64,000 bases of DNA from Minisyncoccota bacterium (GCA_041664285.1 JBAYLA010000003.1:4684-68683), one strand, 5' to 3'; positions 5,629 through 57,644 are shown, counted from the first letter of the stretch. A program made the numbers and translations. Notes: generated from the letters alone by a model not told the origin.

Positions 5629-5681
5629 ATACCCCCACCCCTATTTAAAATCAAAGAATATAAAAATAGGTGTGGGGGTAT
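5629..5681. repeat. GC-rich palindromic hairpin element, CCCCCAC-core family (ATACCCCCACCCCTATTT / AAATAGGTGTGGGGGTAT, 18-nt loop)
   Basis: Inverted repeat seen directly; right arm plus tail GTGTGGGGGTATAACATA identical to copy at 33747-33773; lies upstream of ECF sigma start. Confidence 0.6.
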
Positions 5682-5693
5682 AACATAAAAAAA

Positions 5694-5719
5694 CTCCGAC
5701 CAGAGGTTGGAGTTTTTTT
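5694..5719. terminator. bidirectional rho-independent terminator (CTCCGACC-AGA-GGTTGGAG flanked by A6/T7)
   Basis: 8-bp stem with flanking T-run on + strand and A-run (T-run on - strand); 10 nt downstream of surface-protein gene 3' end. Confidence 0.6.
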
Positions 5720-5729
5720 ATGTTGCTTC

Positions 5730-8078
5730 TTATTGCACTGTAGTGGTTGTAGTTTTCTTACCAGATGGAAGATCAGAAATAACTGTAGTTTTTTTACGGA
5801 AAGACTGATCAAAAATGTATCTAGCTAAAAATGCAAGGATGAGGATCAAGATAAGCAATAGAAGCCATCCGAATAGATTTGTTGGAAGAAAGCCAGCTCC
5901 AAATACGTTTGCTCCAAGTGGTAAGATAGTTGTTTCATCTTTTGTTGCACTCCAGACTTGGGCAGAAACATTAGCATTGACTGATTGAGGTTGTCCAGCA
6001 GGGTCTGTATAACTTAAAGTTGCAGGGAAGTTCAAATTTGTTCCTTCAGCAATATTGTCTCGGACTCGAGTTTTGATGGTAACAGTTCCTTGACCATTGG
6101 CCTTCAGAGTTCCTAAAGTAAAGATTAAAGTATTTCCAGATCTATTTGGGTTATTTGGATTTGAAGAAATGTAATCTACTTCATAGGGAAGATCTACCCT
6201 TAGGGTAAGATTAGAAATTGCTCCTGTGCCTATATTTTGATAGCTGACGGTGTAGTTAATTTCATCTCCAGGACGTGGTCTAGTGTTGTCTATCGTCGGA
6301 ACGATTGGTTGGTTGCGATCAACAGAAGAGGTAATAAGGACAAGTGAAGTCGGAATAGGTTTTGGATTAACGATTGTTTGATTACGAACGGTTATTGTTT
6401 CTGAATCTACAGCAGTCCCGAAATTATTACTACAGGTAAGGGTAAAAGTTCTACTGCCTGTTAATGATCCAGTGTAGAAACTTCCTGGACCAATGCTTTT
6501 TGTTCCTGCCCATCCAACAGATCCTCCTGATGCATTACAATAAGTCGCATTGGTAGTAATCCAACGAAGAGTAGCAGAACCGTTGTAGGCTACATTTGTC
6601 TGATCGGAATAAAGCACTACTGTTGGACGATTGTTAACAACAATATTATATCTGCAAGGGAGTACTCCGCCGTAATTTATGGCACTTGTATCTCGGCAAG
6701 TTTGAATAATGTATGTACAAGGCAGTACACCTCCGTAATTATTAGCATTTATATCTTGGCAAGTTTGAATGTAGTTATTATATCTGCATGGCAATACTCC
6801 ACCATAATTTATAGCACTTGTATCTCGGCAAGTTTGAATGTATGTACAAGGTAATGTTCCTCCATAATTGTTGGCACTTGTGTCTTGGCAAGTCTGTTGT
6901 TGATATTGGTTTACATAAACAGTGGCTGCAGCGCTTGCTTGCTGTCCATTTGTGCCATAACAAGTGATTGTATAATTATTTGTATACGTTGGATAGACAG
7001 AAGAAGATCCGGAAGTTGCACTGCCTCCGTTCCATGAACCAGAACAATAAGATGCATTAGTAGAATTCCAAGTCAAAATTGAACTATTGCCATTCTGAAT
7101 AGAAGAAGGATTGGCATAAAGAGTGACGGTTGGAGTTTGGGTTGTTTGATTTACAGAAACAGTAGCTGAAGCACTGGCTTGCTGTCCGGTACTATTCACA
7201 CAAGTAACACTGTAAGTGGTAGTGACGTTTGGATTAACTATTCCTGATCCACTTGTAGCGGTACTGGAAGTCCAATAAGAAGAACAAGAAGTTGCGTTTG
7301 CAGAATTCCAGACTAAGGTTGAATTACCTCCATATTGAATACTAGATGGATTGGCATAAAGAGTGACGGTAGGAGTTTGCACAAAACATGCTTCATTTGT
7401 ATATGACTGAGTAGAAGATCCAGAACAATAAGCTCCACCGTTACTTGGACTTGGATTGGTGCAGGTACGAGTTTGAGTGCCTGAATATCCACATTGAGTA
7501 CTCTTAGCACTCCAGTCGCTCCAGCCACCGTTTACAGGCACTGAACATGGGGGATTTGTATATGATTGACTAGAAGGTCCAGAACAATAAGCTCCACCGT
7601 TAGCAGGAGTTGGATTGGTACAAGTACGAGTTTGAGTGCCTGAATATCCACATTGAGTACATTTAGCACTCCAATCACTCCATCCTCCGTTTACGGGAGT
7701 TGGGGCAGGGGTACAGGAAGGAGTAGTGAAATTCAAAGTATCACCAATAGCCTTGCCATATCTATTTGAAGCCATTGCTCGATAAGAATATAAACTATTT
7801 TCAGAAAGATTGTTTATTGTTGCTGAAAAAAATTGATCAGAAGAAAAAGTTTGACTTGGAGTGCTGTAGATAGTTGAATTACCTGGCCCCCAATCAAACC
7901 ATACGGTAGTAGGTGAGCCATGAGTTACAAAATCACCCTCTATTGTGGCACTATGGCAACTTAAAGCTATAGGCCCTGCCAAAGCAATTTTAGTAGGAAT
8001 TAAAGTAGAGGCAAAAAGACCAAACAGAGCAATAGCGCTTATTGTTAAAAATTTTGTTTTAAATGTTGTATTTTTCAT
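5730..8078 (-). CDS. large cell-surface protein: signal peptide, FN3-like N-domain, 2 thrombospondin type-1-like repeats, 2 Ig-like ~78-aa repeats, 4 tandem ~23-aa Cys repeats, DUF11-like domain, C-terminal TM anchor
   Basis: WSDWSAK[CS]TQCGYSGTQTRTCTNP...C x2 (TSP1 W-S-x-W-S / C-S-x-T-C-G pattern); QTC[QR]DTSA[IN]NYGG[TV]LPC[RT]Y x4; C-terminal LLLLILILILAFLA hydrophobic anchor. Confidence 0.85.
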   Translation of the reverse strand: MKNTTFKTKFLTISAIALFGLFASTLIPTKIALAGPIALSCHSATIEGDFVTHGSPTTVWFDWGPGNSTIYSTPSQTFSSDQFFSATINNLSENSLYSYRAMASNRYGKAIGDTLNFTTPSCTPAPTPVNGGWSDWSAKCTQCGYSGTQTRTCTNPTPANGGAYCSGPSSQSYTNPPCSVPVNGGWSDWSAKSTQCGYSGTQTRTCTNPSPSNGGAYCSGSSTQSYTNEACFVQTPTVTLYANPSSIQYGGNSTLVWNSANATSCSSYWTSSTATSGSGIVNPNVTTTYSVTCVNSTGQQASASATVSVNQTTQTPTVTLYANPSSIQNGNSSILTWNSTNASYCSGSWNGGSATSGSSSVYPTYTNNYTITCYGTNGQQASAAATVYVNQYQQQTCQDTSANNYGGTLPCTYIQTCRDTSAINYGGVLPCRYNNYIQTCQDINANNYGGVLPCTYIIQTCRDTSAINYGGVLPCRYNIVVNNRPTVVLYSDQTNVAYNGSATLRWITTNATYCNASGGSVGWAGTKSIGPGSFYTGSLTGSRTFTLTCSNNFGTAVDSETITVRNQTIVNPKPIPTSLVLITSSVDRNQPIVPTIDNTRPRPGDEINYTVSYQNIGTGAISNLTLRVDLPYEVDYISSNPNNPNRSGNTLIFTLGTLKANGQGTVTIKTRVRDNIAEGTNLNFPATLSYTDPAGQPQSVNANVSAQVWSATKDETTILPLGANVFGAGFLPTNLFGWLLLLILILILAFLARYIFDQSFRKKTTVISDLPSGKKTTTTTVQ
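6645..6905. repeat. four tandem ~66-69 bp coding repeats inside surface-protein gene
   Basis: DNA tandem repeats encoding QTC[QR]D...LPC[RT]Y units; coding, not CRISPR. Confidence 0.6.
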
Positions 8079-8285
8079 AATATGATTTTTATCATACTAG
8101 TTTACCTTTGTCAAGTATTACTAGATAATAATTTTAATTGTATAAAAGTAAAAATCGACATTTTTACCCTTCCGGAATTATCAATGATAAATATTAATTT
8201 CCATTAATAACTTTGGAAGGGAGAGGAGATGCATAACATCTCCTCATAGATTGATTAAAACTTATAGGAGGGATTTTAGAAGAAT

Positions 8286-8855
8286 TTAATGTGTGTTAAC
8301 GTCGGGAGGTTGTCCTCCGTCGCTACCACCTTTTGAGCCAGATAGTGCCCATACTGCTAGCCCGGTTAATATGATGCCAGCAATAGTCAACTTTCCCCAA
8401 TGCTGACTCAACAAGGATGGTTCTTCAACCTTTTTATCATCGGCGGGGATTAATGGAAGCGGGTCTTTTTTTAAAGCTTCCATTTCGCGTGTTGCGGGTT
8501 TGGTTTGCTCCTCTTTTATGAGAAACAGTTTGTTATATCCTGCGACACACCCGCAGAGATATAACTCACTTCCTTTGACCGCTACTTGAGCCTTATCAGA
8601 AAGTTCCGATAAGACTGCTTTGTTAGAACGTGTGGAATTCCAAATACGAGTCCCCACCAACTCTCCTGCTGGGGAGCACATAACACCGTCCGGCAGTTTT
8701 TTCAGTACTTGGGCTTCGGGGTATTCCACCTCCTGTCCAAACTGAAGGTACCTTCCTTGACCCGTGGGGTCAGGCCTTCCTTCTTCCGCCCAGGCTAGCA
8801 CGGAGAAGCCCAAAATTGCCGCGGCCATTATAATGGCCAAACCTAATCTTTTCAT
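8286..8855 (-). CDS. secreted/membrane-anchored hypothetical protein, compositionally atypical (GC-rich) gene
   Basis: Signal peptide MKRLGLAIIMAAAILGFSVLAWA, C-terminal TM helix; gene visibly much more GC-rich than flanks; adjacent to tRNA-Arg. Confidence 0.6.
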   Translation of the reverse strand: MKRLGLAIIMAAAILGFSVLAWAEEGRPDPTGQGRYLQFGQEVEYPEAQVLKKLPDGVMCSPAGELVGTRIWNSTRSNKAVLSELSDKAQVAVKGSELYLCGCVAGYNKLFLIKEEQTKPATREMEALKKDPLPLIPADDKKVEEPSLLSQHWGKLTIAGIILTGLAVWALSGSKGGSDGGQPPDVNTH

Positions 8856-9125
8856 CTTGTAACCTCCATTTCTAAAGAATTTTTTAGGGTTAAATCCATA
8901 ATATCGTTGGGACTATTCCCCCCCTTTTTTTGTTTTACTTACAATGTACTTTTGGGGACAACCCCCATATATTTAAAAGGATTATTCCTATTATTTTTCA
9001 AATAGAATTGTATCATAGATGGGTCAAAAAGTCAATAGTCCTAAATAGAGTATTGCTTAGCCTAAAAAATTTAATTTTTATATAAAAATCTTTGATTCTA
9101 TAATTAAATTTGAATTTTGTATTAG

Positions 9126-9197
9126 TGCCCTCGGCAGGAATCGAACCTGCATCGCAACTTCCGCAAAGTTGCGTCCTATCCATTGAACGACGAAGGC
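9126..9197 (-). tRNA. tRNA-Arg (anticodon read as GCG from my fold; 4-nt variable loop)
   Basis: Cloverleaf: acceptor GCCTTCG/CGAGGGC, D-arm GTTC-AATGGATA-GGAC, anticodon stem CAACT/AGTTG loop TTGCGGA, T-arm GCAGG-TTCGATT-CCTGC; no encoded CCA. Confidence 0.7.
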
Positions 9198-9234
9198 AAT
9201 AACTTTAGATTAACAGTTTTTTTTAAAAAGTCTA

Positions 9235-9729
9235 TCAGAACCCGAGAGCTTCCATGATTTTTTCTGAAGCGTGCTCTTTCATTTCAACTTCGGGAATATT
9301 TTTAGAAAGCATGATGGAGTGAATATCTTGCGCTATTGTTTTATCTATCGGCATAGAAATAATTGGCATGAAAGCTCTTTCTGAATGTATAAAAAATATT
9401 GGTTTTAGATCCGTTTCTTCCTTGAGGTCTACTTGAATCCAAAAAGATTTTATATTTTCATAAGGATAAAGACGATTTCTGATTGTTAAGCCCTTTTGAT
9501 TTAATTCATAAGTAACCATATCTGGTTTTTTAATGGCAAAAAATCCTAACAAGACTCCAGATAGTATTAAAAGTACTGCAAAAAAATAATTTTCAAAAAT
9601 AATAGAGGCGATGGAACTGGTTACCACAATAATTCCGAGAGCCCAAAACCAATCAGGGCTGCGATCCTTTTCTTCGTATTCTAAAGCAGACCAAATTAAT
9701 TTTTCATCAGAGTTTTCAATTATTTCCAT
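9235..9729 (-). CDS. hypothetical membrane protein
   Basis: two TM helices after acidic N-terminus; no recognised domain. Confidence 0.5.
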   Translation of the reverse strand: MEIIENSDEKLIWSALEYEEKDRSPDWFWALGIIVVTSSIASIIFENYFFAVLLILSGVLLGFFAIKKPDMVTYELNQKGLTIRNRLYPYENIKSFWIQVDLKEETDLKPIFFIHSERAFMPIISMPIDKTIAQDIHSIMLSKNIPEVEMKEHASEKIMEALGF

Positions 9730-9736
9730 AGAATAA

Positions 9737-18966: not shown

Positions 18967-19016
18967 ATACCACAAACCCTACTGTATTTTTGCTTTTTTC
19001 TCAAGTTTTTAAAACT

Positions 19017-19045
19017 AAAATACCCCAGATAATCCGGGGTATTTT
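19017..19045. terminator. rho-independent terminator hairpin AAAATACCCC-agataatcc-GGGGTATTTT
   Basis: 10-bp stem with A/T-rich flanks directly after 19054-19317 gene 3' end. Confidence 0.6.
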
Positions 19046-19053
19046 AGTTTTGT

Positions 19054-23089: not shown

Positions 23090-23749
23090 ATGAAAATTAA
23101 TATTCTATATGAAGATTCTAATATTCTAGCCATAGACAAACCATCTGGAATTTTAGTGCATCCAGATAAATGGAGCAAAGAAAAAACAATTCTTGATTTA
23201 TTTATTAAAAAATATCCCAAATTAGAAATAGTGCACCGTTTAGATAAAGATACTTCTGGAGTAATGTTATTGGCTAAAAACAAAAAGACTCACGAATTTC
23301 TCAAAAGCCAATTTCAGAATAGGGATGTAAAGAAAATTTATGTGGCAATAGTATCCGGTTCCGTAAACAATGATCGTGGAGTGATCAATAAGCCAATTGG
23401 GCGAAGCCCAAAAGATTTCCGAAGGCGTCTTGCTGGCAGAGGAGCTAGAGGTGAGATGCGAGAAGCTGTTACCGAATACCGTGTCCTCAAACGTCTAAAA
23501 AATTTTACTTATCTTGAAGTTCGTCCTAAAACTGGCCGAACACATCAGATTCGCGTGCATTTAAAATATTTAAATCATCCGGTAGTTTGTGATTCTCTTT
23601 ATAATCCAGATAACCCATGCCCAAAGGGTTTAAAACGCTTAGCCCTTCATGCAAAATCAATAGAATTTAAAAATTTGAAAGGAGAAATTATTAAAGTTGA
23701 ATCATCTATACCAAAAGAGTTTAAAGAAATGGTAAATCCACACACTTAA
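23090..23749 (+). CDS. pseudouridine synthase, RluA family
   Basis: HRLDKDTSGVMLLAKN catalytic-Asp motif; start moved to ATG 23090 (track ORF begins at GTG 23021 inside GC-rich leader). Confidence 0.85.
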   Translation: MKINILYEDSNILAIDKPSGILVHPDKWSKEKTILDLFIKKYPKLEIVHRLDKDTSGVMLLAKNKKTHEFLKSQFQNRDVKKIYVAIVSGSVNNDRGVINKPIGRSPKDFRRRLAGRGARGEMREAVTEYRVLKRLKNFTYLEVRPKTGRTHQIRVHLKYLNHPVVCDSLYNPDNPCPKGLKRLALHAKSIEFKNLKGEIIKVESSIPKEFKEMVNPHT

Positions 23750-23776
23750 TTTTTTTGCTTTAAATTAAGTGTGTGG
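23738..23776. repeat. palindromic hairpin CCACACACTTAATTT / AAATTAAGTGTGTGG overlapping rluA stop (CCCCCAC-core family member / terminator)
   Basis: 15-bp perfect inverted repeat, T-rich loop. Confidence 0.5.
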
Positions 23777-23789
23777 GTAAAATAATAAG

Positions 23790-28296: not shown

Positions 28297-30845
28297 ATGG
28301 AGAAAGTTGAAAACATTCCAGGTCTTTCTCAAGTAGAGGCCGAAAAAATTTTAAAAATTGACGGTTTTAATGAATTACCCTCTCAGAAAAAACAGAGTGG
28401 TTTTTTTATTTTACTGAAAGTGTTGTCTGAGCCAATGCTTGTTTTGTTGCTTGGAGCTGGAGCAATCTATTTATTCTTAGGAGAAGCGAAAGATGCACTG
28501 ATGCTTCTGTCTTTTGTGTTCGTGGTTGTTGGTATCACATTTTATCAAGAAAGAAAAACAGAAAAAACACTTGAAGCCTTGCGTGATTTATCGAGTCCTA
28601 GAGCTTTGGTTATTAGAGATGGAGAGCAGAAAAGAATTGCAGGAAGGGAAGTTGTTAAAGGAGATATCATTATTGTTCATGAGGGGGATAGAATACCGGC
28701 TGATGCAGTTGTTCTTTCTTGTGAAAATCTTTCAGTGGATGAATCACTTTTAACAGGAGAATCAATGCCAGTTAGAAAAATGGAATGGGATGAAAAGATA
28801 ATAAAACAAAAACCAGGGGGGATGATTTACCTTTTGTTTATTCTGGGACAATGGTAGTAAATGGTCGAGGGATAGTGCAAGTAAATTTTACTGGTCTTAA
28901 TACTGAAATTGGTAAAATTGGCAGAAGTTTAGAAAATATCAAAGAAGAAGATACGCTTTTAAAGAAAGAAACAAAAAAAATTGTTCAATCAGTAGCTATT
29001 GTTGGGGTAATCCTTTGTTTACTTGTTGTTATATTTTACACGGTTGTTAAAGGTAGTTTAATTAATGGATTTTTGGCTGGAATAACATTAAGCATGGCAA
29101 TGCTCCCAGAGGAATTTCCAGTGGTACTTTTGATATTTTTAACTTTAGGTGCATGGAGAATTTCAAAAAGAAAAGTTCTTACTAGGCGACCTGCTGCTAT
29201 TGAGACATTAGGAGCAGCAACTGTTCTTTGTACAGACAAAACTGGAACACTTACATTAAATAAAATGGAATTAAGTAGTTTATACGCCAATGGTTCTTTT
29301 TGTGAAATTAAGGATCTAACTTTTAACAAACTTTTAGAAAAATTTGAAATTCTTTTGGAATTTGGAATTTTAGCTAGTAGAAAAGACCCATTTGATCCGA
29401 TTGAAAAAGAATTGAACAAAATTGGTAATTTATATCTTAAAAAAATAAAAGAAACTTATCATAATTACGATTTAGTAAGAGAGTATTCTTTGTCAAAAAA
29501 ACTTCTAGCCTTATCACATGTTTGGCAATCGAAAGATAAGAAAAATTTTATTCTTGCCTCTAAAGGAGCACCCGAAGCAATTTTAAAATTATGCAATTCA
29601 AGTGATGAGGAAAAGGAAAAAATTTTACAAAAAGTAAAAGAAATGTCTAAAAAGGGATTGCGGGTACTAGGGGTTGCTCGGGGAATATTTACGAGAGACG
29701 TTTTACCTGACCAACAACATGAATTTGATTTCGAATTTGTTGGTCTGCTTGGTTTTATTGATCCAGTACGAGCCACAGTTCCTAACGCTGTAAGAGAAGC
29801 TTATGATGCTGGAATAAAAGTAATTGTAATTACAGGAGATTACCCTGGTACGGCTCAATTTATAGCTAAAGAAATTGGAATAAAAAATATTGAAGAATAT
29901 TTAACAGGAGAAGATTTAGAAAAGATGGATCATTTAAAACTTCGAGAGAAAATAAAGACCATAAATATTTTTGCTAGAGTTGCACCAGAACAAAAATTAC
30001 TTATTGTAAACGCATTAAAAGCAAATGGTGAAATTGTTGCGATGACGGGTGATGGAGTAAATGATGCCCCAGCATTAAAGTCAGCTCATATTGGAGTTGC
30101 TATGGGAGAAAGAGGAACAGATGTGGCTCGAGAAGCTTCTTCCTTGGTTTTACTTAACGACGACTTTTCTTCAATTGTTGTCGCTGTTCGCTTGGGGCGA
30201 AGAATTTATAACAACTTAAAGAGGGCAATGGGATATATTTTAGCTGTACATGTTCCAATTGCCGGGATGTCTATTCTGCCTTTGTTTTTTAATATGCCGG
30301 TCGTATTGCTTCCAGCTCATATTGCTTTTTTAGAATTAATTATTGATCCTGCTTGCTCGACGGTTTTTGAAGCGGAAAAAGAAGATGAAAATATAATGAA
30401 AAGACCACCGAGGAACCTTCATCAGCGGATGTTTAATTTAAAAACAGTATCAATTAGTATGATGCAAGGGCTTGGTGTTTTGATAGCGACATTTGTTCTA
30501 TTTATTTTTGCCGTTAAGACGGGCAGGACTGAAATTGAAGCTCGATCAATTGCCTTTGTGGCATTAGTTTTGGGAAACTTAATGCTTATTGTTATTAACT
30601 TGTCATGGAGTAAAAATATTTTTAAAACCCTTAGATCTGCCAATAAAATATTCTATATGGTTTTCTTTGGAGCATTGTTGTGTTTAATGGCAGTATTATA
30701 TATACCGTTTTTTGCCAATCTTTTTCATTTAGGCCCACTAAATTATAAAGATTTTATTCTTGTAACTGCCGCTGTTTTATTAAGCTTAGCTTGGTTTGAA
30801 ATATTGAAATTATTTAAAAATAAAAATGAAATAAAATTTACTTGA
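28297..30845 (+). pseudogene. P-type cation-transporting ATPase (type II, Ca2+/Mg2+-like), interrupted by a frameshift in a G6 run at 28816-28821
   Basis: Two ORFs 28297-28857 and 28851-30845 in different frames; together give TGES, DKTGTLT, GDGVNDAPALK motifs and 8-10 TMs; inserting one G joins them (KPGGDDLPFVYSGTMVVNG). Confidence 0.75.
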
Positions 30846-32330: not shown

Positions 32331-33689
32331 TTACAAAAACGATACCAGTAGCGCTATGGCAAAAAGACCCATGACTATGAATGCAGTCCAGAGTCCAAGT
32401 TTAGAGGCTATGCCACTCTTATGTTCGCCCATTACATCACTCTTACTTGAAACCCTAGCAATAAAATAAATAAGTGGCACTGCAGCAATACCATTAAATA
32501 CGGCTGTAAAAACAAGCGCCTTAATAGGGTTAAAACCAATAAAGTTGAAAACCAATCCAACTAAAGTACCAACAATAATTACAAAATAAAAATTGCGAGA
32601 CTGTTTGAATTTACGGAACAAGCCCTCTTTCCAACTAAATGTCTCGGCTACTGCATAGGCAGAACTTCCAGCTAATACTGGGATACTTTGCAGACCAATA
32701 CCAACAACACCAATAGCAAAAATAAGTTTGGCTAAATATCCAGCATTAGGAAAAGTATGTACCAATGGTTCAAGTGCTCGGGCAGCATCAGCGGCCGTGC
32801 TTATGTTGGTTACTCCAGCTTGGTTTAAAACTACGGCTCCAACAATAATGATGAACCAAGCAGTTACATTGGAAAATAGCATTCCTATTGCATTATCAAT
32901 GCGTAAATTTTTTAAATACGATTTTGTTAACTTAGGAACACCACCATGTTGTGGAATTTTGTGTTTAGTAATTGCATCTTCAACCACATTACTTGTTTGC
33001 CAAAAGAATAAATATGGTGAAATAGTTGTACCAAAAATTCCTACGACAATGTATAAAAAAGAACTGTTTAATTGTATTTTAGGGATGAGGGTAGCTTTCA
33101 ATACTTCCATCCAAGGTACGGCAACTAAAAAAGCTGTAATAAAGTAAGCAAATAAAGCCATCGCTAACCATTTTAAAATTCGTATATAGGTGCGATAAGG
33201 AATGAGTACTTCCAGTAATATTATTAGCAAAGCAAAACCAATTGCTAAAACTGGGAATGAAAGACTGGGGATGATTAATCGGGTACTTTCTGCCATGGCT
33301 CCAATGTCAGCGCCGATATTAAGGGTGTTGGCGCATACCACTAATAACACAATTGGATATAATATTTTTTTTGGATAATGTTCACGAATAACCGCTGCTA
33401 ATCCTTTACCGGTGACAGCTCCTATTCTCATACAAGCTTCTTGTACGGCAGTCATAAGTGGAAGAGTGAAGAGCATAGTCCAAGGTAATAAAAAGCCAAA
33501 TTGTGCCCCAGCTTGAGAATAAGTAGCAATACCAGATGGATCATCATCGGCAGCACCGGTGACAATACCTGGACCAAGAATTTTCAAAAATCGCCCAAAT
33601 CGTTTTGGGGCTTTATTTTTTTTAACTATTTTGTCTAATGTATTATTCTGTTCAGAGTCAGCGATTATTTCATCAGGGAATTTGACCAT
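32331..33689 (-). CDS. mntH: NRAMP-family divalent metal (Mn2+/Fe2+) transporter MntH
   Basis: GPGIVTGAADDDPSGI... and MTAVQE motifs, 11-12 TMs; ATG at 33689 preferred over track GTG start at 33731, which lies inside the upstream palindrome. Confidence 0.9.
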   Translation of the reverse strand: MVKFPDEIIADSEQNNTLDKIVKKNKAPKRFGRFLKILGPGIVTGAADDDPSGIATYSQAGAQFGFLLPWTMLFTLPLMTAVQEACMRIGAVTGKGLAAVIREHYPKKILYPIVLLVVCANTLNIGADIGAMAESTRLIIPSLSFPVLAIGFALLIILLEVLIPYRTYIRILKWLAMALFAYFITAFLVAVPWMEVLKATLIPKIQLNSSFLYIVVGIFGTTISPYLFFWQTSNVVEDAITKHKIPQHGGVPKLTKSYLKNLRIDNAIGMLFSNVTAWFIIIVGAVVLNQAGVTNISTAADAARALEPLVHTFPNAGYLAKLIFAIGVVGIGLQSIPVLAGSSAYAVAETFSWKEGLFRKFKQSRNFYFVIIVGTLVGLVFNFIGFNPIKALVFTAVFNGIAAVPLIYFIARVSSKSDVMGEHKSGIASKLGLWTAFIVMGLFAIALLVSFL

Positions 33690-33720
33690 AAATAAAGTAT
33701 AGCTAATTTTTTTCTTTTGG

Positions 33721-33764
33721 TATACCCCCACACTTATTATTGATTAAATAAGTGTGGGGGTATA
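33721..33764. repeat. CCCCCAC-core palindrome (TATACCCCCACACTTATT / AATAAGTGTGGGGGTATA) in divergent mntH/murB promoter region
   Basis: 18-bp perfect inverted repeat; right arm + tail identical to 5664-5690. Confidence 0.6.
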
Positions 33765-33779
33765 ACATAGATACATAAT

Positions 33780-34793
33780 ATGAAAATTTTTAAGGACTAT
33801 AATTTGAAAGAGTTAAATACATTTAGGATTGAGGTGAAGGCTAAATTTTTTACTGAAATAAATAGCGAAAATGATTTAGTTGAACTTTTTAATCAAGAAG
33901 AATTTAAAAATAATCATAGAATGTTTTTGGGTGGCGGTAGTAATGTTTTATTTACAAAAGATTTTGATGGAATTGTGGTTTTAAATAAACTAAAAGGGAT
34001 AGAAACTACAAGGGAAGATTCTGAAAATGTCTTGGTCCGTTCTTTTGGAGGAGAGCTCTGGCAGGACCTTATAATGTTCGTGGTAAATAATGGATATTGG
34101 GGGATTGAAAATTTGGCTTTTATCCCAGGGACCGTTGGGGCTACTCCGATTCAAAATATTGGAGCGTATGGGATAGAACTCAAAGATATTTTGGAAAATG
34201 TTGAAACTTTTGAAGTTGGAACAGGGGAAAAGAAAATTTTTTCTAAAGAAGAGTGTGAATTAGGGTATAGAGATAGTGTTTTTAAAAATAAATTAAAGGA
34301 AAAATATTTTATCTCAGCCATAACTTTAAAGTTAAATAAAATACCAAGGCCAAATCTTTCTTATAAAATTCTATCTGATTATTTAGAAAAAAATAAAATC
34401 AAAATAAATGGTCCGAAAGATATTAGTGATGCTGTGACATTTATACGACAAAATAAATTGCCAAGTCCGAAGATGATAGGAAATGCAGGGAGCTTCTTTA
34501 AAAATGTTTTTATATCAAAAGAACAATTGAATCATTTACTAAAAATTTATCCAAATATGCCATATTTTGAGGAAGAAAAGGTTACAAAAATTCCAGCTGG
34601 ATGGCTCATTGAACAATGTGAATGGAAAGGGCATAAAGCTGGTAATGTCGGAGTTTATGAAAAACAAGCATTGGTTTTGGTTAATTATGGGGGGGCAACT
34701 GGGAGTGAAATTCTTGAATTGGCAAATAAAATTATAACATCTGTTAAAGAAAAATTTGGACTTGAATTACTCCCTGAAGTCAATATTGTGTAA
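33780..34793 (+). CDS. murB: UDP-N-acetylenolpyruvoylglucosamine reductase MurB
   Basis: FAD-binding domain GGGSNVLF; C-terminal MurB domain. Confidence 0.9.
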   Translation: MKIFKDYNLKELNTFRIEVKAKFFTEINSENDLVELFNQEEFKNNHRMFLGGGSNVLFTKDFDGIVVLNKLKGIETTREDSENVLVRSFGGELWQDLIMFVVNNGYWGIENLAFIPGTVGATPIQNIGAYGIELKDILENVETFEVGTGEKKIFSKEECELGYRDSVFKNKLKEKYFISAITLKLNKIPRPNLSYKILSDYLEKNKIKINGPKDISDAVTFIRQNKLPSPKMIGNAGSFFKNVFISKEQLNHLLKIYPNMPYFEEEKVTKIPAGWLIEQCEWKGHKAGNVGVYEKQALVLVNYGGATGSEILELANKIITSVKEKFGLELLPEVNIV

Positions 34794-45197: not shown

Positions 45198-45818
45198 ATG
45201 GACGCAACCAATTCAATCTTTTATATCCTTATCCTTGTTATGTCTATCGTGATTCACGAAATCTCGCATGGTTTTATGGCGGAATATTTCGGTGATGATA
45301 CTGCGCGTAATGCTGGGAGACTAACACTGAATCCTATTTCACACATAGACTTATTCGGCTCAATTCTTTTACCAGCAGTTCTTATTTTAAGTAGCACTGG
45401 TTTTATTTTTGGTTGGGCCAAGCCCGTTCCCTATAATCCAAATAATTTAAGCAATAGAAAATGGGGAACAATTGCTGTTGCGGCAGCTGGTGTTCTGGCG
45501 AACTTTTTTATTGCTATTATTTTTGGAATTATAATACGTTTAACATCTGGTATGACCTTGCAACCTAATTTTTATTTTATAACTTCTGCCATTGTAATTG
45601 TAAATCTGGCTCTAGCTATTTTTAATCTTGTCCCGATTCCACCCCTCGATGGCTCTAAAATACTTTTTTCTTTCTTACCCGAGAGAGCTTTTTCTTTTAT
45701 TCTTGACTACGAACAATACTCTTTAATCCTATTACTTGTTTTTATTGTTTTCTTTTCTGATTATTTATATCCAATTTTAGCTTTTCTTTTTCATTTAATT
45801 ACTGGGCTTGCGCTTTAA
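45198..45818 (+). CDS. site-2-protease-family zinc metalloprotease (peptidase M50)
   Basis: HEISHG HExxH in TM helix, LNPISHIDLFG second metal ligand region; start moved to ATG 45198 to avoid overlap with rpmB start. Confidence 0.75.
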   Translation: MDATNSIFYILILVMSIVIHEISHGFMAEYFGDDTARNAGRLTLNPISHIDLFGSILLPAVLILSSTGFIFGWAKPVPYNPNNLSNRKWGTIAVAAAGVLANFFIAIIFGIIIRLTSGMTLQPNFYFITSAIVIVNLALAIFNLVPIPPLDGSKILFSFLPERAFSFILDYEQYSLILLLVFIVFFSDYLYPILAFLFHLITGLAL

Positions 45819-45926
45819 ATTTTAAAATACAACTTTTGAAGGGGTTTCGAGGCTGACGAGCCGAGAACTTCAGGATTTTTTAAGCTTCAAAAAATCTGTA
45901 CCGAAAAAAGTTGTATTTTAAAATTT
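45817..45926. repeat. copy B (inverted orientation) of the ~90-110 bp repeat element, with 21-bp terminal inverted repeats AAATTTTAAAATACAACTTTT / AAAAGTTGTATTTTAAAATTT
   Basis: reverse complement of 45831-45912 matches 4962-5045; directly upstream of rpsL. Confidence 0.6.
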
Positions 45927-50428: not shown

Positions 50429-50471
50429 CCACAGGCCAAGCCTAAGGGAAACCCTTAGGCTTGGCCTGTGG
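50429..50471 (+). terminator. 20-bp perfect GC-rich hairpin CCACAGGCCAAGCCTAAGGG-aaa-CCCTTAGGCTTGGCCTGTGG between tuf and rpsJ (terminator/attenuator)
   Basis: perfect inverted repeat seen directly; overlaps the S10 leader. Confidence 0.6.
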
Positions 50472-53419: not shown

Positions 53420-53430
53420 AAATAAACAAA

Positions 53431-53826: not shown

Positions 53827-53869
53827 CGGAGGTTTCAACATTTTATCGTTGAGACCTCCGAGCTTTTTT
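53827..53869 (+). terminator. rho-independent terminator CGGAGGTTTCAAC-attttatc-GTTGAGACCTCCG + T6
   Basis: 13-bp stem (one G-U) with T-run. Confidence 0.65.
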
Positions 53870-53919
53870 ATATCTCCAAACGGCTCATTTCCCACTGTTT
53901 GAGCCATTCACTGTTTTAC

Positions 53920-53947
53920 TTGCATTTTTATATATATTTGTTAGTAT
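53920..53947 (+). promoter_or_regulatory. candidate promoter TTGCAT-16-TAGTAT upstream of rpsS
   Basis: hexamers seen; restart of r-protein transcription after terminator. Confidence 0.35.
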
Positions 53948-53997
53948 GATTTAAGGCTCAAATGAGAGCCATTTTGTTTATATAAGAAGAAAAATTC

Positions 53998-54345
53998 ATG
54001 ACCAGAAGTATCAAAAAAGGATTATATGTCGACGAAAGGCTCTTAAAAAAGATTGCCGGTAAAAACCCGTTGCAGACTCCAATGGTGAAGACTTGGAAAA
54101 GAGCTTGCGTGATTTCTCCCGAGATGCTTGGTTTCACTTTCGGTGTTTATAATGGCAAAGTTCATGTGGAAGTTTTAGTGACTGAAGATATGGTAGGTCA
54201 CAGACTTGGAGAATTTTCTCCAACCAAGAAATTTATGAAACATGGAGGAAAGATGCAGAAAGAGCTTGAACAAAAGAAAAAAGAAGCAGAAATAACAGCT
54301 GCTAAAGGGGCGACCGCAGCTGCAGCTGACGCTAAGAAAAAATAA
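53998..54345 (+). CDS. rpsS: 30S ribosomal protein S19 (with Lys/Ala-rich C-terminal extension)
   Basis: canonical. Confidence 0.95.
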   Translation: MTRSIKKGLYVDERLLKKIAGKNPLQTPMVKTWKRACVISPEMLGFTFGVYNGKVHVEVLVTEDMVGHRLGEFSPTKKFMKHGGKMQKELEQKKKEAEITAAKGATAAAADAKKK

Positions 54346-54356
54346 TTATCAAAACA

Positions 54357-54749
54357 ATGAAAGCATTTTTAAAAAACTACAGACAATCTCCAAGAAAAGT
54401 TCGTTTAGTCGCGGAACTTATCAAAGGTAAAAAAGTATCCGAGGCAATTGCGGAGCTTGATTTTTTAGCTAAACGCGCAGGATTACCGATTAAGAAGCTT
54501 TTACTCTCTGCTGTAGCTAATGCAAAAAGTACTGGAGTAGAAGTAGAGAACTTATTTGTAAAAGAATTGCGAGTAGACAAAGGTATTACCATGAAGAGAA
54601 TGATGCCGGCAGCGATGGGTACAGGACACCGAATAAACAAACGCACTAGCCACCTCAACCTTCTTTTAGCAGAAAAAGTTGTCGCTGTAAAAAAATCCCG
54701 CGGTCATAAACCTAAGGGCGAAACAAAAGCTAAAAAAGCAAATAAATAA
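54357..54749 (+). CDS. rplV: 50S ribosomal protein L22
   Basis: canonical. Confidence 0.95.
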   Translation: MKAFLKNYRQSPRKVRLVAELIKGKKVSEAIAELDFLAKRAGLPIKKLLLSAVANAKSTGVEVENLFVKELRVDKGITMKRMMPAAMGTGHRINKRTSHLNLLLAEKVVAVKKSRGHKPKGETKAKKANK

Positions 54750-54753
54750 TTTT

Positions 54754-55503
54754 ATGTCAAAAATAGTTCACCCATATGCACATAGATTGATAATACTGAG
54801 AGACTGGAAGTCTCGTTGGTTTGCTGATCCGAAAAAATATATCTCTTATTTAAAAGGGGATGTTTTAATACGTCAATATTTAGAAAAGAAATTACGAGGG
54901 ATGTATGTTTCTAGTATTGAAATTGAAAGAAGCCGAAAAGCTACTCGTTTTATAATTAAAACTTCTCGCCCAGGCCTTCTGATTGGCAGAAGTGGTGAAG
55001 GAGCGACTAAACTTAAAGAAGACATTTTAAAGAAAATGGATAAGTTAAAATTAGTCCGACCAGAAGACTTCAAACTTGAAATTGTAGAAGTTTCAAATCC
55101 AGAAGCTGATGCCGCTATTGTTGCTTATATGATTGCCGAAGGATTAGAAAAAAGAATGCCTTATCGCCGAGTCATCAAGCAAATTATAGAAAAAGTTATG
55201 CAGACCAACGGCGTTGAAGGTGCCAGGATTGTGTTATCAGGTCGTTTGGGTGGAGCTGAAATTGCTCGTACTGAAGAGCTGAAGCGTGGCTCTATTCCAC
55301 TTCAGAGTTTTAGGGCAGATATTGATTTCAAACGTGAACGTGCGACCCTTTCATATGGTGTGGTTGGTATAAAAGTTTGGATTTATCGTGGTAAAATTTT
55401 TGCTGACAAGAAACCCGCACGCAGTACTTATGTTTCTGCTGGTGCAGCTGATGCAAAAGAGAACGCTTCCGGTTCATTAAAAGGTTTAGAAAAGACAGAT
55501 TAA
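54754..55503 (+). CDS. rpsC: 30S ribosomal protein S3
   Basis: KH domain. Confidence 0.95.
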   Translation: MSKIVHPYAHRLIILRDWKSRWFADPKKYISYLKGDVLIRQYLEKKLRGMYVSSIEIERSRKATRFIIKTSRPGLLIGRSGEGATKLKEDILKKMDKLKLVRPEDFKLEIVEVSNPEADAAIVAYMIAEGLEKRMPYRRVIKQIIEKVMQTNGVEGARIVLSGRLGGAEIARTEELKRGSIPLQSFRADIDFKRERATLSYGVVGIKVWIYRGKIFADKKPARSTYVSAGAADAKENASGSLKGLEKTD

Positions 55504-55506
55504 TTT

Positions 55507-55935
55507 ATGTTAACTCCTAAAAAAGTAAAATTTAGAAAATGGCAAACTGGACGTTCAAATCCAAAAGCACGAACTGCAGATACTCGTGGCGTTAAATTGG
55601 CTTTTGGTTCTTTTGGTTTAAAATCTGAAACTCAAGCACGCATAAAGTCAACTCAAATTGAATCTGCTCGAAAAGTTATTTCTCGTACCTTAACCAAAAC
55701 TGGTAAATATTGGATTCGTATTTTTCCAGACCGTCCTTTTACTTCTAAGGCAGCTGAGGTGGGCATGGGAAAAGGGAAAGGGGATCCACAAGGATATTGT
55801 TTTGATGTTTTACCAGGACGAATTATTTTCGAAGTAGATGGAGTGGATGAAGCTATCGCTCGTGAAGCTTTACGAAAAGCAGGCAGTAAGCTTCCAATTA
55901 AAACTCGAATTGTTTCGAGAGCCCATAAACAATAA
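55507..55935 (+). CDS. rplP: 50S ribosomal protein L16
   Basis: canonical. Confidence 0.95.
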   Translation: MLTPKKVKFRKWQTGRSNPKARTADTRGVKLAFGSFGLKSETQARIKSTQIESARKVISRTLTKTGKYWIRIFPDRPFTSKAAEVGMGKGKGDPQGYCFDVLPGRIIFEVDGVDEAIAREALRKAGSKLPIKTRIVSRAHKQ

Positions 55936-55938
55936 TAT

Positions 55939-56127
55939 ATGAAAAACAACAAAGTAAATTTCAAAGAAATGAAAAAAGATGAATTAGAAAAGAAATTAAT
56001 TTCTTTAAGAGAAGAAATTAGAGTTATAAAATTTAGAACAGAAGGTTCAAAATCAAAAAATGTTAAAGAACTTGCGACCCTAAGAAAACAAATTGCTAAG
56101 GTCTTAACTGAAATAAATAAAAAATAA
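55939..56127 (+). CDS. rpmC: 50S ribosomal protein L29
   Basis: canonical. Confidence 0.9.
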
Positions 56128-56131
56128 TTAT

Positions 56132-56413
56132 ATGGCAAATAAAGTAAAAAAAGAAATAACAGAAAAGAAAGGCAATATTTTAAAAGGTGTTGTTGTTTCT
56201 GATAAAATGGACAAGACCATTGTTGTTTCTGTGTCCAGATTTGTTAAGCATCCACTTTATGGAAAATTTTATAAAATCAGCAAAAAATACAAAGCACACG
56301 ATAGCAATAATCAATTTAAAATAGGTGATAAAGTAGAAATAGTTGAAACTCGACCAATTTCTAAAGATAAAAGATTTAAAGTAGTTACCCACGCTAAAGC
56401 GGGGCAAGAATAA
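56132..56413 (+). CDS. rpsQ: 30S ribosomal protein S17
   Basis: canonical. Confidence 0.95.
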
Positions 56414-56417
56414 TTTT

Positions 56418-56789
56418 ATGATTCAAAATGAAACTTTAGTAAAAATAACAGACAATGCTGGAGGCACCGTTGGAAAGGTGTTTAAGATTTTAGGGTCTTC
56501 TAAGAAAAGATATGCCAGACTTGGCGAGTTGGTTATTATTTCTGTAAAAGTGGCTAGTCCTAGAAAGGGAGTTAAAAAGAAAGATGTTCATCAAGCTGTA
56601 GTTGTGCGTACCAGAGGTGCCTATAGACGTAAAGATGGTTCCTATATTCGTTTTGATGATAATGCTGTAGTTATTTTAGAAAAAGGAAAGAAAGATCCGA
56701 AAGCTGGTCGCGTCTTTGGCCCGATTCCGAGAGAATTAGCTGAGAAAGGATTCCAGAAAATAATTTCTTTAGCACAAGAAGTAATTTAA
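56418..56789 (+). CDS. rplN: 50S ribosomal protein L14
   Basis: canonical. Confidence 0.95.
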   Translation: MIQNETLVKITDNAGGTVGKVFKILGSSKKRYARLGELVIISVKVASPRKGVKKKDVHQAVVVRTRGAYRRKDGSYIRFDDNAVVILEKGKKDPKAGRVFGPIPRELAEKGFQKIISLAQEVI

Positions 56790-56799
56790 TAATAAATTT

Positions 56800-57018
56800 A
56801 TGAAAATCAAAAAAGGAGATAATGTAAAAATTATTACTGGTAAAGACAAAGGAAAATCTGGAAAGATTGTCCGTGTTTTAGTTAAAGAAAATAAAGTGGT
56901 GGTAGAAGGATTGAATATGATGAAGAAACATCAGCGTCCCAGAAAAACTAACGAGAAAGGAAGTATGGTTAATATAGCTATGCCTATTGCTGCTTCTAAT
57001 GTTAAAAAAGTAGAATAA
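56800..57018 (+). CDS. rplX: 50S ribosomal protein L24 (short, 72 aa)
   Basis: KOW motif. Confidence 0.9.
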   Translation: MKIKKGDNVKIITGKDKGKSGKIVRVLVKENKVVVEGLNMMKKHQRPRKTNEKGSMVNIAMPIAASNVKKVE

Positions 57019-57035
57019 TTTATCAAAAGAAATAT

Positions 57036-57602
57036 ATGAAACATTTAACCGTAAAAGAAAAAGAAAAGGAAAGTTTTGAAAAAATGAAAAGTGTTTTTCA
57101 TTACAAAAACGCCTTAGCCACACCAAAGATGGAAAAGATTGTCATCAATGTTGGTACTGGAACGATGGTGAAAAAAGATAAGAATAAAAATGAAGCCATT
57201 GGTGATCGTTTAGCAAAAATTACTGGTCAAAAGACTGCTTTACGTGGAGCCAAACAATCTATCTCATCTTTCAAAATTCGTCAGGGTGACCCTGTTGGAG
57301 TGGTGGTTACCTTACGTGGTAAAAGAATGTATGTCTTTTTAGAAAAGCTTATTAATATTGCTCTTCCTCGAACTAAAGACTTTAGAGGTATTAATCGTAA
57401 TGCTGTAGACAATATTGGCAATCTTACTATCGGTATAAAGGAACATACAATCTTTCCAGAAACAGCAGATGAAGATATCAGAGATATTTTTGGAATGTCT
57501 ATCACCTTAGTTTCTTCTGCTAAAAATAAAAAAGAAGGTACAGCCTTTTTTGAAATTTTAGGTATTCCTTTTAAGAAAGAAGAGGATTCTAAGAAGAAAT
57601 AA
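57036..57602 (+). CDS. rplE: 50S ribosomal protein L5
   Basis: canonical. Confidence 0.95.
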   Translation: MKHLTVKEKEKESFEKMKSVFHYKNALATPKMEKIVINVGTGTMVKKDKNKNEAIGDRLAKITGQKTALRGAKQSISSFKIRQGDPVGVVVTLRGKRMYVFLEKLINIALPRTKDFRGINRNAVDNIGNLTIGIKEHTIFPETADEDIRDIFGMSITLVSSAKNKKEGTAFFEILGIPFKKEEDSKKK

Positions 57603-57603
57603 A

Positions 57604-57644
57604 GTCAAACCCCCACACCTTTTAAAAAGGTGTGGGGGTTTGAC
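57604..57644. repeat. CCCCCAC-core perfect palindrome GTCAAACCCCCACACCTTTT/AAAAGGTGTGGGGGTTTGAC directly after rplE stop
   Basis: 20-bp perfect inverted repeat with no loop; atypical ~180 bp gap before rpsZ. Confidence 0.6.

Follow-up and report, generated by a model that had tools for sequence, protein, structure and literature searches.

The four GC-rich palindromes in a window of 64,000 nucleotides from a Minisyncoccota bacterium are best explained as copies of a very small non-autonomous, MITE-like DNA transposon (a "nano-MITE"), and not as an operator or a special terminator; we put the probability of this reading at roughly 0.8. The copies are polymorphic between relatives, they are flanked by duplicated target sequence, they survive in frame within genes, and they are spread across Patescibacteria. 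The movement may be of the cut-and-paste kind, individual copies, e.g., the one between mntH and murB, may have gained a function for the host, and the anatomy of the element, which recalls piggyBac/IS1380, suggests a transposase of the DDE type.

All four inverted repeats listed in a preliminary description of this DNA were confirmed, with boundaries 1-3 nt off the coordinates given there (Table 1). They are hairpin palindromes with the core CCCCCACAC/GTGTGGGGG and terminal inverted repeats of 13-21 nt, lying in DNA of 29-40% G+C, and the folding energies of the hairpins as RNA lie between -22 and -36 kcal/mol, with z from -5 to -9. In the window, about 0.9 half-sites are expected by chance. 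The sequence GTGTGGGGGT, with at most one mismatch, is matched 7 times (0.89 expected), a number attained in 0 of 100 shuffles, and all seven matches fall in the four palindromes; a relaxed scan of the window revealed no further convincing copy. At site 4, a diverged copy, the arms carry a variant core, CCACACAC, in which the change at core position 4 is matching in both arms. The earlier view of the palindromes as copies of a single element, as opposed to coincidental terminators, was borne out. The 18-mer common to two copies, GTGTGGGGGTATAACATA, is present at 5670-5687 and 33752-33769, and it comprises the 9 nt at the end of the element, the TATA of the duplicated target (4 nt), and 5 nt of flank. 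In the site-1 18-mer this 5-nt flank is ancestral, because the empty site of a relative also has those 5 nt.

Table 1. Coordinates of the palindromes and of associated features in the window.
Feature	Position	Strand	Arms	Description
ECF-type sigma-70 gene	5044-5619	minus		Pfam assignment
-10 box TATATT of the ECF-type sigma-70 gene	5626..5631	-		promoter scan: TTGATT-17-TATATT
Site 1	5628..5682	.	5628-5646 / 5664-5682, 19 nt, one mismatch (CCCCCACCC)	47-nt element 5632-5678 (CCCCCACCC...GTGTGGGGG); duplicated TATA at 5628-5631 and 5679-5682
Hairpin-plus-T-run terminator of the upstream DUF11 gene	5682..5724	+		context, outside the element; unchanged beside the L159 empty site
Site 4, diverged copy	23733..23781	.	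23738-23752 / 23762-23776, 15 nt, perfect	element 23737-23777 (TCCACACAC...GTGTGTGGG); TAAA at 23733-23736 and 23778-23781
Site 2	33721..33764	.	33718-33738 / 33747-33767, 21 nt, 95% complementary	36-nt element 33725-33760; TATA at 33721-33724 and 33761-33764
Empty target GGGCTTGCGCTTT at the end of the M50 peptidase gene	45804..45816	+		L122 comparison
Site 3	57603..57645	.	57603-57623 / 57625-57645, 21 nt, perfect	29-nt element 57610-57638; arms lengthened to 21 nt (AGTCAAA.../...TTTGACT)
rpsN promoter TTGACT-17-TAGTAT, conserved	57640..57668	+		context; promoter scan; same boxes in element-free L157 and L158

Site 1 is a clean insertion, and its TATA duplication was verified against an empty site. 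The orthologous site of a relative (L159) reads ...ATGT-TATA-TTTAGAAAATG, with a single TATA and without the element, and the window reads ...ATGT-TATA-(47-nt element)-TATA-TTTAGAAAATG; the alignment of the two (A2) shows an exact 51-nt insertion, i.e., the 47-nt element plus the second TATA. The duplicated target consists of the first four bases of the sigma gene -10 box, which is located 6 nt ahead of the ATG in a leaderless layout, and TATATT-TAGAAA-ATG is also found at the empty site. The element lies between the canonical terminator of the DUF11 gene and the start of the next gene, within the -10 box of the latter.

Site 2 is located between two divergent genes, mntH on the minus strand, with its ATG at 33689, and murB, whose ATG is at 33780. 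The overlap with a GTG start of mntH that had been described for this copy did not stand, as gene calls and the conserved N-terminus identify the ATG at 33689 as the start codon, which is 34 nt away from the palindrome; the overlap appeared because the ORF had been over-extended. L122 and L124/L125 share this insertion, with arms and duplication identical at 36/36 nt, and murB third codon positions are 52% identical in the same comparison. The element is absent from L123, L126, and L127, and L123 has only GGTATA-tttat-TATACCA at this place. Far more conserved than neutral sites, the mntH-murB copy may have been co-opted or may play a secondary regulatory role.

Site 3 abuts the rplE stop codon (57600-57602; distance 0 nt), as the preliminary description had stated. 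Its flanks are inverted, not direct (CAAA/TTTG, extending to AGTCAAA/TTTGACT). The element is absent in L157, whose RplE is 96% identical and which reads TAA-tcg-TTGACT, and it is absent in L158 too. The right arm overlaps the -35 box of the rpsN promoter, which is followed by a conserved leader reaching rpsN at 57782, with leader blocks common to L157 and L158. The atypical 180-bp gap before rpsZ/rpsN, pointed out in the preliminary description, is accounted for mainly by the conserved internal promoter and a conserved ~110-nt leader common to the relatives, and the site-3 element is a recent addition to the rplE-rpsN gap.

The diverged copy at site 4 is inserted in the final codons of an rluA-like gene, whose end now lies within the element (ATG GTA AAT CCA CAC ACT TAA), and the ancestral end, GTA AAA TAA, is found duplicated beyond it; the L122 orthologue ends GTG GTA AAA TGA, with the element absent. 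L122 also provides a filled site for which the window holds the empty target. Downstream of its M50 gene, a family member of 134 bp with CTTG on either side splits the 13-mer GGGCTTGCGCTTT, and taking out this member together with one CTTG gives the 13-mer that is uninterrupted in the window; the filled site is complicated by an extra 20 nt recreating the gene end. Relative to orthologues or to an ancestral gene end, sites 3 and 4 and the 134-bp member are insertions as well.

The family palindrome was found at more than 120 genome loci, and 71 of 120 are labelled Patescibacteria, from many classes, these taxon labels being those of metagenome bins, in which mis-binned contigs are possible. 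An inner stem of the family type is present at 59 of the 71 Patescibacteria-labelled loci and in 1 of 28 viral-contig matches. Metagenomes add more than 120 loci with members of 110-140 bp, and longer members (110-310 bp) are abundant there; the family has hundreds of loci in public genomes and metagenomes. The element occurs in multiple dispersed copies of 26-310 bp, a size that leaves no room for a transposase gene, its ends read 5'-CCCCCACAC(C)WAW... and the complement, and half-sites are practically never single but paired. Where the two repeats abut, elements of 26-48 bp result (mode 28-29 bp); otherwise the repeats enclose up to ~300 bp of variable DNA. Long members have terminal repeats of 10-25 nt, and only their terminal 10-13 nt are common, the interiors being unrelated. 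The copy number differs even among relatives, with 4 in 64 kb of the window, 2 in 21 kb of L122, and 0 in L123, L126, and L127.

Target duplication was also apparent at the level of the family. Identical direct 4-mers stand beside CCCCC..GGGGG in 43 of 81 short copies (mean of 5000 permutations 12.3, maximum 26), and when only flanks that are not self-palindromic are counted, 30 are direct and 4 inverted. For long copies, identical flanks were found in 52 of 126 (permutation mean 6.7, maximum 15), with the outer bases T..A in 41 and C..G in 6. The flank profile beside the core is T-W-W-A, and TTAA is rare among the perfect duplications (1/43 and 1/52). About 40-60% of the copies are without a perfect duplication, for which age may be the cause.

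The gene context of the family is an ordinary mix: 36 copies lie between tandem, 10 between divergent, and 7 between convergent genes, and 18 are within ORFs. The intergenic classes occur in ordinary proportions, so that the family can be read neither as a terminator design nor as an operator. In all 18 in-ORF copies the length is 1 mod 3 (background 39/81), which keeps the element plus its duplication in frame, and the hosts are real genes, encoding a P-type ATPase, Mur ligase, PolA, PolX, FGAM synthase, QueA, PheT, and others. The ATPase of L033, when compared with that of the window, has the extra segment YPHTKDFGVGV; in-frame copies are read as ..PHT..GVGV.., ..TPTP..VWGF.., or ..PPH..CGG... 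Within ORFs only the 28-48-bp forms occur, each contributing 10-16 residues; nearly all of the 110-140-bp forms are intergenic. A number of copies touch or overlap a -35 or -10 box. A gene start at a distance of 12-13 nt is present for 8 of 32 sides of TATA-flanked copies and for 1 of 132 sides with other flanks, and the genes downstream are unrelated to each other; this spacing fits insertion into -10 boxes.

The mechanism that we propose assumes that a transposase acting in trans would cut the target with a 4-bp stagger, and that because of this cut a 4-bp direct repeat would surround every insertion. The preferred target would be T-N-N-A, mainly TAAA, TTTA, and TATA, and less often C-N-N-G. 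Copies would persist where they do little harm, that is in spacers, often in the TATA within -10 boxes of leaderless genes, and the shortest forms would persist also in genes if the element and the duplication together make a multiple of three. Mobilisation in trans is something that we only infer, since in ~2.1 Mb of fetched DNA neither an autonomous copy (an end pair 0.4-5 kb apart around an ORF) nor a recurrent transposase near the copies was found.

The 9-13-nt ends are conserved phylum-wide and, together with the mntH-murB arms described above, they exceed in conservation what is expected of a purely selfish, decaying element, which speaks for a protein that still recognises them or for use by the host. 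A further-reaching account, which we consider rather unlikely, is that the ends are kept by a conserved recognising protein, either a piggyBac/IS1380-type prokaryotic transposase that has yet to be described or its domesticated derivative, and that some copies were recruited by the host, e.g., as a hairpin/cruciform module at the mntH/murB -35 region or, in leaderless genes with a hit -10 box, as a portable -35.

The preliminary description also mentioned a REP-like element, which came close to the answer. In its specific form, this explanation would have a RAYT transposase (HUH Y1) move the copies in the form of single-stranded hairpins, in the manner of REP/REPIN elements. The family indeed comprises short GC-rich palindromes (26-48 bp), dispersed and mostly extragenic, with no coding capacity, and with loops that vary between conserved ends. 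However, HUH Y1 enzymes (IS200/IS605, RAYTs) insert beside a fixed tetranucleotide and make no duplication, whereas the family has 4-bp target duplications of varied sequence. The GTAG or CGTC tag is absent from the flank profile, no gene, whatever its kind, was seen to recur beside the copies, and numerous copies lie inside genes, which makes this route improbable.

It was also suggested that the copy between mntH and murB is an operator of a metal-responsive regulator, i.e., a palindrome bound by a dimeric transcription factor (e.g., the metal sensor MntR, Fur, or CsoR) with mntH among the genes under its control. Its place between the two gene starts, the conservation of its arms far past the neutral expectation in three genomes, and the copies at -35 or -10 boxes would suit such a role, and TATACCCCC...GGGGGTATA resembles the G/C-tract operators of CsoR/RcnR-type repressors. 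The half-site spacing, however, varies from 1 to more than 100 nt, and the stems are complementary beyond the core, which is a signature of a hairpin or terminal repeat and not of a fixed dyad. Moreover, neighbouring genes are functionally unrelated, copies lie within coding regions, and the element is missing from the orthologous promoters of L159 (sigma), L157 and L158 (rpsN), and L123, L126, and L127 (murB); no regulator gene linked to the copies was found. We regard an operator as very improbable.

Slightly more doubtful still is a preferred intrinsic (Rho-independent) terminator design, in which GC-rich stems halt transcription at gene ends. The strength of the hairpins and the position of sites 3 and 4 directly after stop codons are in line with it, a lenient scan marks site 3 as terminator-like on both strands, and a T-rich tail follows on one strand in 24 of 81 copies. 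However, 57 of 81 have no such tail and none has it on both strands. Nor do all copies map to 3' ends, the outcome that had been named as favouring terminators: site 2 lies in a divergent intergenic region, and site 1 comes after a separate canonical terminator, inside the -10 box of the next gene. Divergent locations are as common as convergent ones, 18 copies are within ORFs, orthologous gene ends in relatives lack the element, and the phylum-wide conservation of the stem sequence and the target duplications would be left unexplained. Least credible is a role in DNA uptake, with the palindromes as signals for the competence machinery that Patescibacteria depend on, comparable to the DUS of Neisseria or the USS of Haemophilus. 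In its favour, the short motif is shared across a lineage believed to import DNA, the DUS of Neisseria are frequently arranged as inverted pairs, and uptake sequences are found in coding regions too, but the half-sites of the family are almost never alone, its copies arise from insertion and target duplication and not from point mutation of resident sequence, and they are sparse and unevenly distributed (0-4 per 16-64 kb in close relatives).

The usual description of Patescibacteria is one of streamlined genomes with little mobile DNA. Minimal transposable palindromes that are still polymorphic among close relatives show active genome turbulence in these ultrasmall bacteria (CPR), and they offer a ready marker for strain-level comparison. 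The transposon-like element also accounts for odd "GC stems", for start codons that were over-extended, and for the inserts of 10-16 residues seen in annotated proteins. Repeated hits on the -10 boxes of leaderless genes suggest a route by which elements can rewire promoters. The transposase, if found, could be turned into a highly compact transposition system (ends of ~13 bp) to serve a phylum with almost no genetic tools.

Several known systems resemble the family in part. The ends of piggyBac/IS1380 elements are CCC...GGG and their 4-bp duplication is TTAA, with the variants TAAA, TCAA, and CTAA, IS1380 being the prokaryotic relative (PMC10813416). The family is similar in anatomy alone (CCC/GGG ends, a 4-bp AT-rich duplication, T..A outer bases); TTAA is rare in it, no such transposase was found near the copies, and piggyBac is eukaryotic, and the possible relationship is only a lead. 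With REP/REPIN it shares the size, the GC-rich hairpin, the mostly extragenic location, and a highly conserved stem. REP families are, however, defined with a GTAG or CGTC head (PMC3733652), which the family does not have, and it differs also in its target duplications and in its copies inside genes, not being confined to extragenic DNA.

Rickettsia palindromic elements (RPE) are palindromic mobile repeats in the reduced genomes of host-dependent bacteria, where ten families with consensus sequences of ~100-150 bp are known and insertion occurs repeatedly in frame in unrelated housekeeping genes, adding a peptide segment (PMC10969869). The 18/18 in-frame copies in unrelated protein-coding genes parallel this in a separate host-dependent lineage with reduced genomes. 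The RPE description sets the family apart by size class and host lineage, as RPE of ~100-150 bp add ~30-50 residues and the in-ORF forms of the family, 28-48 bp long, add 10-16. Like the family, MITEs have terminal inverted repeats, target-site duplication, no coding capacity, many dispersed copies, and presence/absence polymorphism between relatives. However, usual MITEs are ~50-500 bp long, whereas most family copies are 26-48 bp and consist of two abutting terminal repeats, and the family spans a phylum-level radiation, not a genus; we know of no parent insertion sequence for it. Insertion near promoters and occasional in-frame insertion in genes are described for MITEs (PMC10969869), as found here.

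The four palindromes lie where the preliminary description placed them, with arm coordinates re-derived here (see table). The window comes from a metagenome-assembled genome of Candidatus Paceibacterota and has a G+C content of 29-40%; in it GTGTGGGGGT, with at most one mismatch, is matched seven times against 0.89 expected, none of 100 shuffles reaches seven, and all seven matches fall within the four palindromes. A looser scan of the window gave no convincing further copy. The predicted RNA folds of the four hairpins range from -22 to -36 kcal/mol; no Rfam family reached its gathering score in the window, and permissive Rfam scans around sites 2 and 3 returned generic hairpin noise alone, e.g., microRNA precursors. 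Two of the copies are at gene ends, a third shortly precedes a gene start and the fourth is in a promoter region between divergent genes; a dedicated terminator does not fit this mixed placement. The overlap of site 2 with a GTG start of mntH, proposed earlier, results from over-extension of the ORF, the called start being the ATG at 33689. Two further strong palindromes in the window, CCACAGGCCAAGCCTAAGGG/CCCTTAGGCTTGGCCTGTGG and AAAACTAAAATACCCCAGAT/ATCCGGGGTATTTTAGTTTT, fall outside the family and probably act as terminators or attenuators.

Coordinates of the palindromes and of other features discussed (window positions, or positions in L-numbered loci fetched from other genomes)
Feature	Position	Arms	Context	Strand
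Site 1	5628-5682	5628-5646 / 5664-5682	between canonical terminator (5682-5724) of DUF11 gene and ATG (5619) of ECF-type sigma-70 gene	minus (sigma gene)
Site 2	33721-33764	33718-33738 / 33747-33767	between divergent mntH (Nramp) and murB	
Site 3	57603-57645	57603-57623 / 57625-57645	starts immediately past rplE stop	
Site 4	23733-23781	23738-23752 / 23762-23776	overlaps stop of rluA-like gene; ends 12 nt ahead of next ATG	
Palindrome CCACAGGCCAAGCCTAAGGG/CCCTTAGGCTTGGCCTGTGG	50429-50471		between tuf and rpsJ	
Palindrome AAAACTAAAATACCCCAGAT/ATCCGGGGTATTTTAGTTTT	19011-19051			
rpsN leader and promoter	57640-57781; L157 10553-10655; L158 9757-9897			
rplE-rpsN junction of a relative	L158 8825-9898		ribosomal protein operon	
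MITE-like insert	45817-45926		between M50 peptidase gene and rpsL	
P-type cation ATPase	28297-28857 and 28851-30845		two overlapping ORFs	
M50 peptidase gene end	L122 20640-20830			
Inverted pair GGATCCCGTTAGAAGC...GCTTCTAACGGGATCC	L122 9875-10010		upstream of murB	
15-mer of that pair	L010 ~3060-3080		adjoins CCCCCACAC palindrome	
Nested or adjacent copies	L066 2286-2333; L043 6231-6276; L031 5874-5960			
Copies in prepilin-like genes	L108 6676-6715; L119 5608-5641		leader peptides	

Relatives of the window genome were retrieved through MurB, RplE and the sigma factor, and the decisive case of insertion is site 1. In L159 (sigma factor 87% identical), this site is empty and reads GGAGTTTTTTTATGT-TATA-TTTAGAAAATG (...ATGT-TATA-TTTAGAAA); the window has GGAGTTTTTTTATGT-TATA-(47-nt element)-TATA-TTTAGAAAATG, i.e., an exact 51-nt insertion with TATA duplicated (alignment A2). 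The insertion hit a leaderless gene's -10 box, TATATT. An exact 30-mer of the empty allele had no match in metagenomes. Site 3 is empty in L157 (RplE 96% identical), which reads TAA-tcg-TTGACT-17-TAGTAT, and the element is absent from L158 too. At site 4, the present end of the rluA-like gene, ..ATG GTA AAT CCA CAC ACT TAA, lies within the element, and its ancestral end, GTA AAA TAA, sits beyond it; the orthologue in L122, without the element, ends GTG GTA AAA TGA. A 134-bp member with CTTG/CTTG flanks is present in L122 and not in the window, and excising it together with one CTTG leaves GGGCTTGCGCTTT, the 13-mer found at the end of the window's M50 peptidase gene. L122 has 20 additional nt that restore the gene end; its M50 gene ends in ACTGGGTTGGTATTGTAA, and five bases further on the ancestral end stands a second time, interrupted by the element, GGGCTTG-(134-bp element)-CTTGCGCTTTGA (G-L-A-L-stop).

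Site 2 is an old insertion. L122 (MurB 74% identical), L124 and L125 (83%) share it, TATA duplication included; L123 has just GGTATA-tttat-TATACCA, which is consistent with a footprint of excision or deletion, and no copy was found in L126 and L127 (21 kb each). Between the window and L122, the arms and duplication are identical at 36 of 36 positions and the loop is changed, and third codon positions of murB are 52% identical over the same genomes. Either a protein may still read the ends, or this copy may have joined the control region of mntH and murB. The examined MurB N-termini contain no translated palindrome. A further family of repeats is represented in L122 by an inverted pair, GGATCCCGTTAGAAGC...GCTTCTAACGGGATCC, which is inserted upstream of murB and absent in the window; its 15-mer recurs, beside a CCCCCACAC palindrome, in an unrelated Paceibacterota contig. 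A second insert of the window, MITE-like and unrelated to the family, has inverted ends that match perfectly over 21 nt (AAATTTTAAAATACAACTTTT / AAAAGTTGTATTTTAAAATTT, 68 nt between them); L122, L126 and L127 lack it at its place between the M50 peptidase gene and rpsL.

The 180-bp gap between rplE and rpsN, called atypical in the preliminary description, is accounted for mainly by a promoter and a conserved leader ahead of rpsN, common to relatives. The internal promoter (TTGACT-17-TAGTAT) and the leader of rpsN (S14) are conserved in the window and in two relatives, with blocks that include AAGGGnnnnnGCTTTAATyAATCC and GAGATATTGtAAGGCtcCCC; this is a candidate ribosomal-protein leader without an Rfam match. 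In this clade the junction is also a hot spot of insertion (P0122 contig gene table): one relative has three extra genes here (DUF5678, Asp_protease_2 and PGDYG) and another carries a pair that includes a pilin-like gene.

When one genome per species was scanned with ACCCCCACAC-N(0-30)-GTGTGGGGGT, at least 120 stretches matched, where about 17 loci are expected by chance (our own arithmetic, uniform composition assumed). By record title, 71 of the 120 matches listed belong to Patescibacteria of many classes (Saccharibacteria, Nomura-, Paceibacterota, Falkow-, Wolfe-, Berkel-, Doudna-, Moran-, Campbell-, Giovannoni-, Yonath- and Buchananbacteria). The ends are conserved over the whole radiation. 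Patescibacterial copies extend the palindrome inward (C-W-A-W ... W-T-W-G), often to a perfect palindrome of 30-31 nt; among the matches listed, such a stem is present in 59 of 71 Patescibacterial and 1 of 28 viral-contig matches. Carriage by phages was rejected, the 28 + 6 viral-contig matches being unrelated terminators or repeats. Family-type copies in bins labelled Elusimicrobia, Omnitrophota, Nitrospirae, Brocadiaceae and "Deltaproteobacteria" could reflect real spread or mis-binning.

Among the matches listed, 43 of 81 copies carry identical 4-mers as direct repeats around CCCCC...GGGGG (permutation mean 12.3, maximum 26 in 5000), most commonly TAAA (16), TATA (12) and TTTA (11). With self-palindromic flanks set aside, direct repeats number 30 and inverted ones 4; direct flanks are expected of a transposon, inverted ones of a hairpin or of a site bound by a dimer. 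Relative to transcription, TTTA- and TAAA-flanked copies differ weakly (9 vs 4). Of 32 sides flanked by TATA, 8 have the start of a long ORF 12-13 nt past GGGGG, compared to 1 of 132 other sides (among the matches listed), in the layout TATAYT, 6-7 nt, ATG, i.e., a -10 box and a leaderless start. The genes downstream are unrelated (SET-domain protein, RF2, DnaX, RsuA, aminopeptidase N, G6PD, sigma factor). Taken with the empty site 1, these findings suggest that TATA targets in -10 boxes are preferred and speak against a regulon. In several TATA-flanked copies, a -35-like hexamer lies in the loop, 17 nt upstream (TTGATT in site 1).

The operator for a metal-responsive regulator suggested in the preliminary description was rejected. 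The grounds are variable spacing (half-sites 1-30 nt apart among the genome-set matches listed, >100 nt in long members), unrelated neighbouring genes and orthologous promoters without the element; regulation survives solely as a possible secondary role of site 2. The terminator design was rejected for gene context and missing T tails: among the matches listed, a T-rich tail follows one strand of 24 of 81 copies and both strands of none, and the genes flanking family-type copies are tandem in 36 cases, divergent in 10 and convergent in 7, with 18 copies inside ORFs. Copies are not confined to 3' ends, and the mix is ordinary for spacers. A DNA uptake sequence was rejected, as half-sites never occur alone and the copies are insertions. 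The earlier view that these are copies of one element rather than coincidental terminators holds.

Insertion extends into genes. All 18 in-ORF copies have a length of 1 mod 3, against 39 of 81 in the background (among the matches listed), so that element and duplication have a combined length divisible by three; the three reading frames encode ..PHT..GVGV.., ..TPTP..VWGF.. and ..PPH..CGG... The host genes are genuine: P-type ATPase, Mur ligase, M16 peptidase, QueA, histidine kinase, PolX, DNA polymerase I (in the linker between exonuclease and polymerase domains), FGAM synthase (just past the PurS domain) and PheT (between B3_4 and B5 domains). The ATPase of L033 has precisely YPHTKDFGVGV extra when compared to that of the window. 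The window's P-type cation ATPase is itself divided into two ORFs, identically in public gene calls; possible explanations are a frameshift, a pseudogene and an assembly error. Two of the in-ORF copies fall in the leader peptides of type IV prepilin-like genes, where their right arm, GTG TGG GGG TTT, gives the Gly-Phe of the G|FTLIEL cleavage/methylation site.

Longer members were sought in metagenomes with CCCCCACACC-N(90-120)-GGTGTGGGGG, which matched at least 120 stretches. Among the matches listed, 126 elements of 110-140 bp were extracted, almost all intergenic, with terminal repeats of 10-25 nt and highly heterogeneous interiors (83 singletons on clustering); 52 of the 126 have identical 4-bp flanks (permutation mean 6.7, maximum 15), with outer bases T..A in 41 and C..G in 6. 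Since these and one 310-bp member were found, the four window copies are the smallest end of a size series. Elsewhere, a copy within a copy, back-to-back half copies and a decayed copy beside an intact one suggest repeated hits at the same spots.

No end pair 0.4-5 kb apart enclosing an ORF, as expected of an autonomous element, was present in ~2.1 Mb of fetched DNA, and no transposase recurring near copies emerged when 851 and later 1483 ORFs of these loci were clustered. The clusters are housekeeping families, with the exception of small GIY-YIG proteins, found at 6 of 120 loci (among the matches listed), 1-4 kb from copies and in no fixed arrangement. The large window ORFs without known function are not transposases. 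The features that define a MITE are present, save that no parent element was found in this DNA. Literature searches gave no description of this motif, or of palindromic repeats or MITEs in CPR/Patescibacteria; the family, with ends CCCCCACAC...GTGTGGGGG, is new and its kind known. What distinguishes it is minimal size, reach across the phylum and in-frame insertion in core genes.

Compared to known systems, membership of the REP/RAYT group is contradicted by the duplications and by the absence of the GTAG/CGTC tag (PMC3733652). The in-gene copies behave as Rickettsia palindromic elements are described to do (PMC10969869), although size and lineage differ. In anatomy, the family resembles piggyBac, whose prokaryotic relatives are the IS1380 elements (PMC10813416): the CCC...GGG ends and the 4-bp duplication at T-N-N-A are alike, a likeness that offers a lead.
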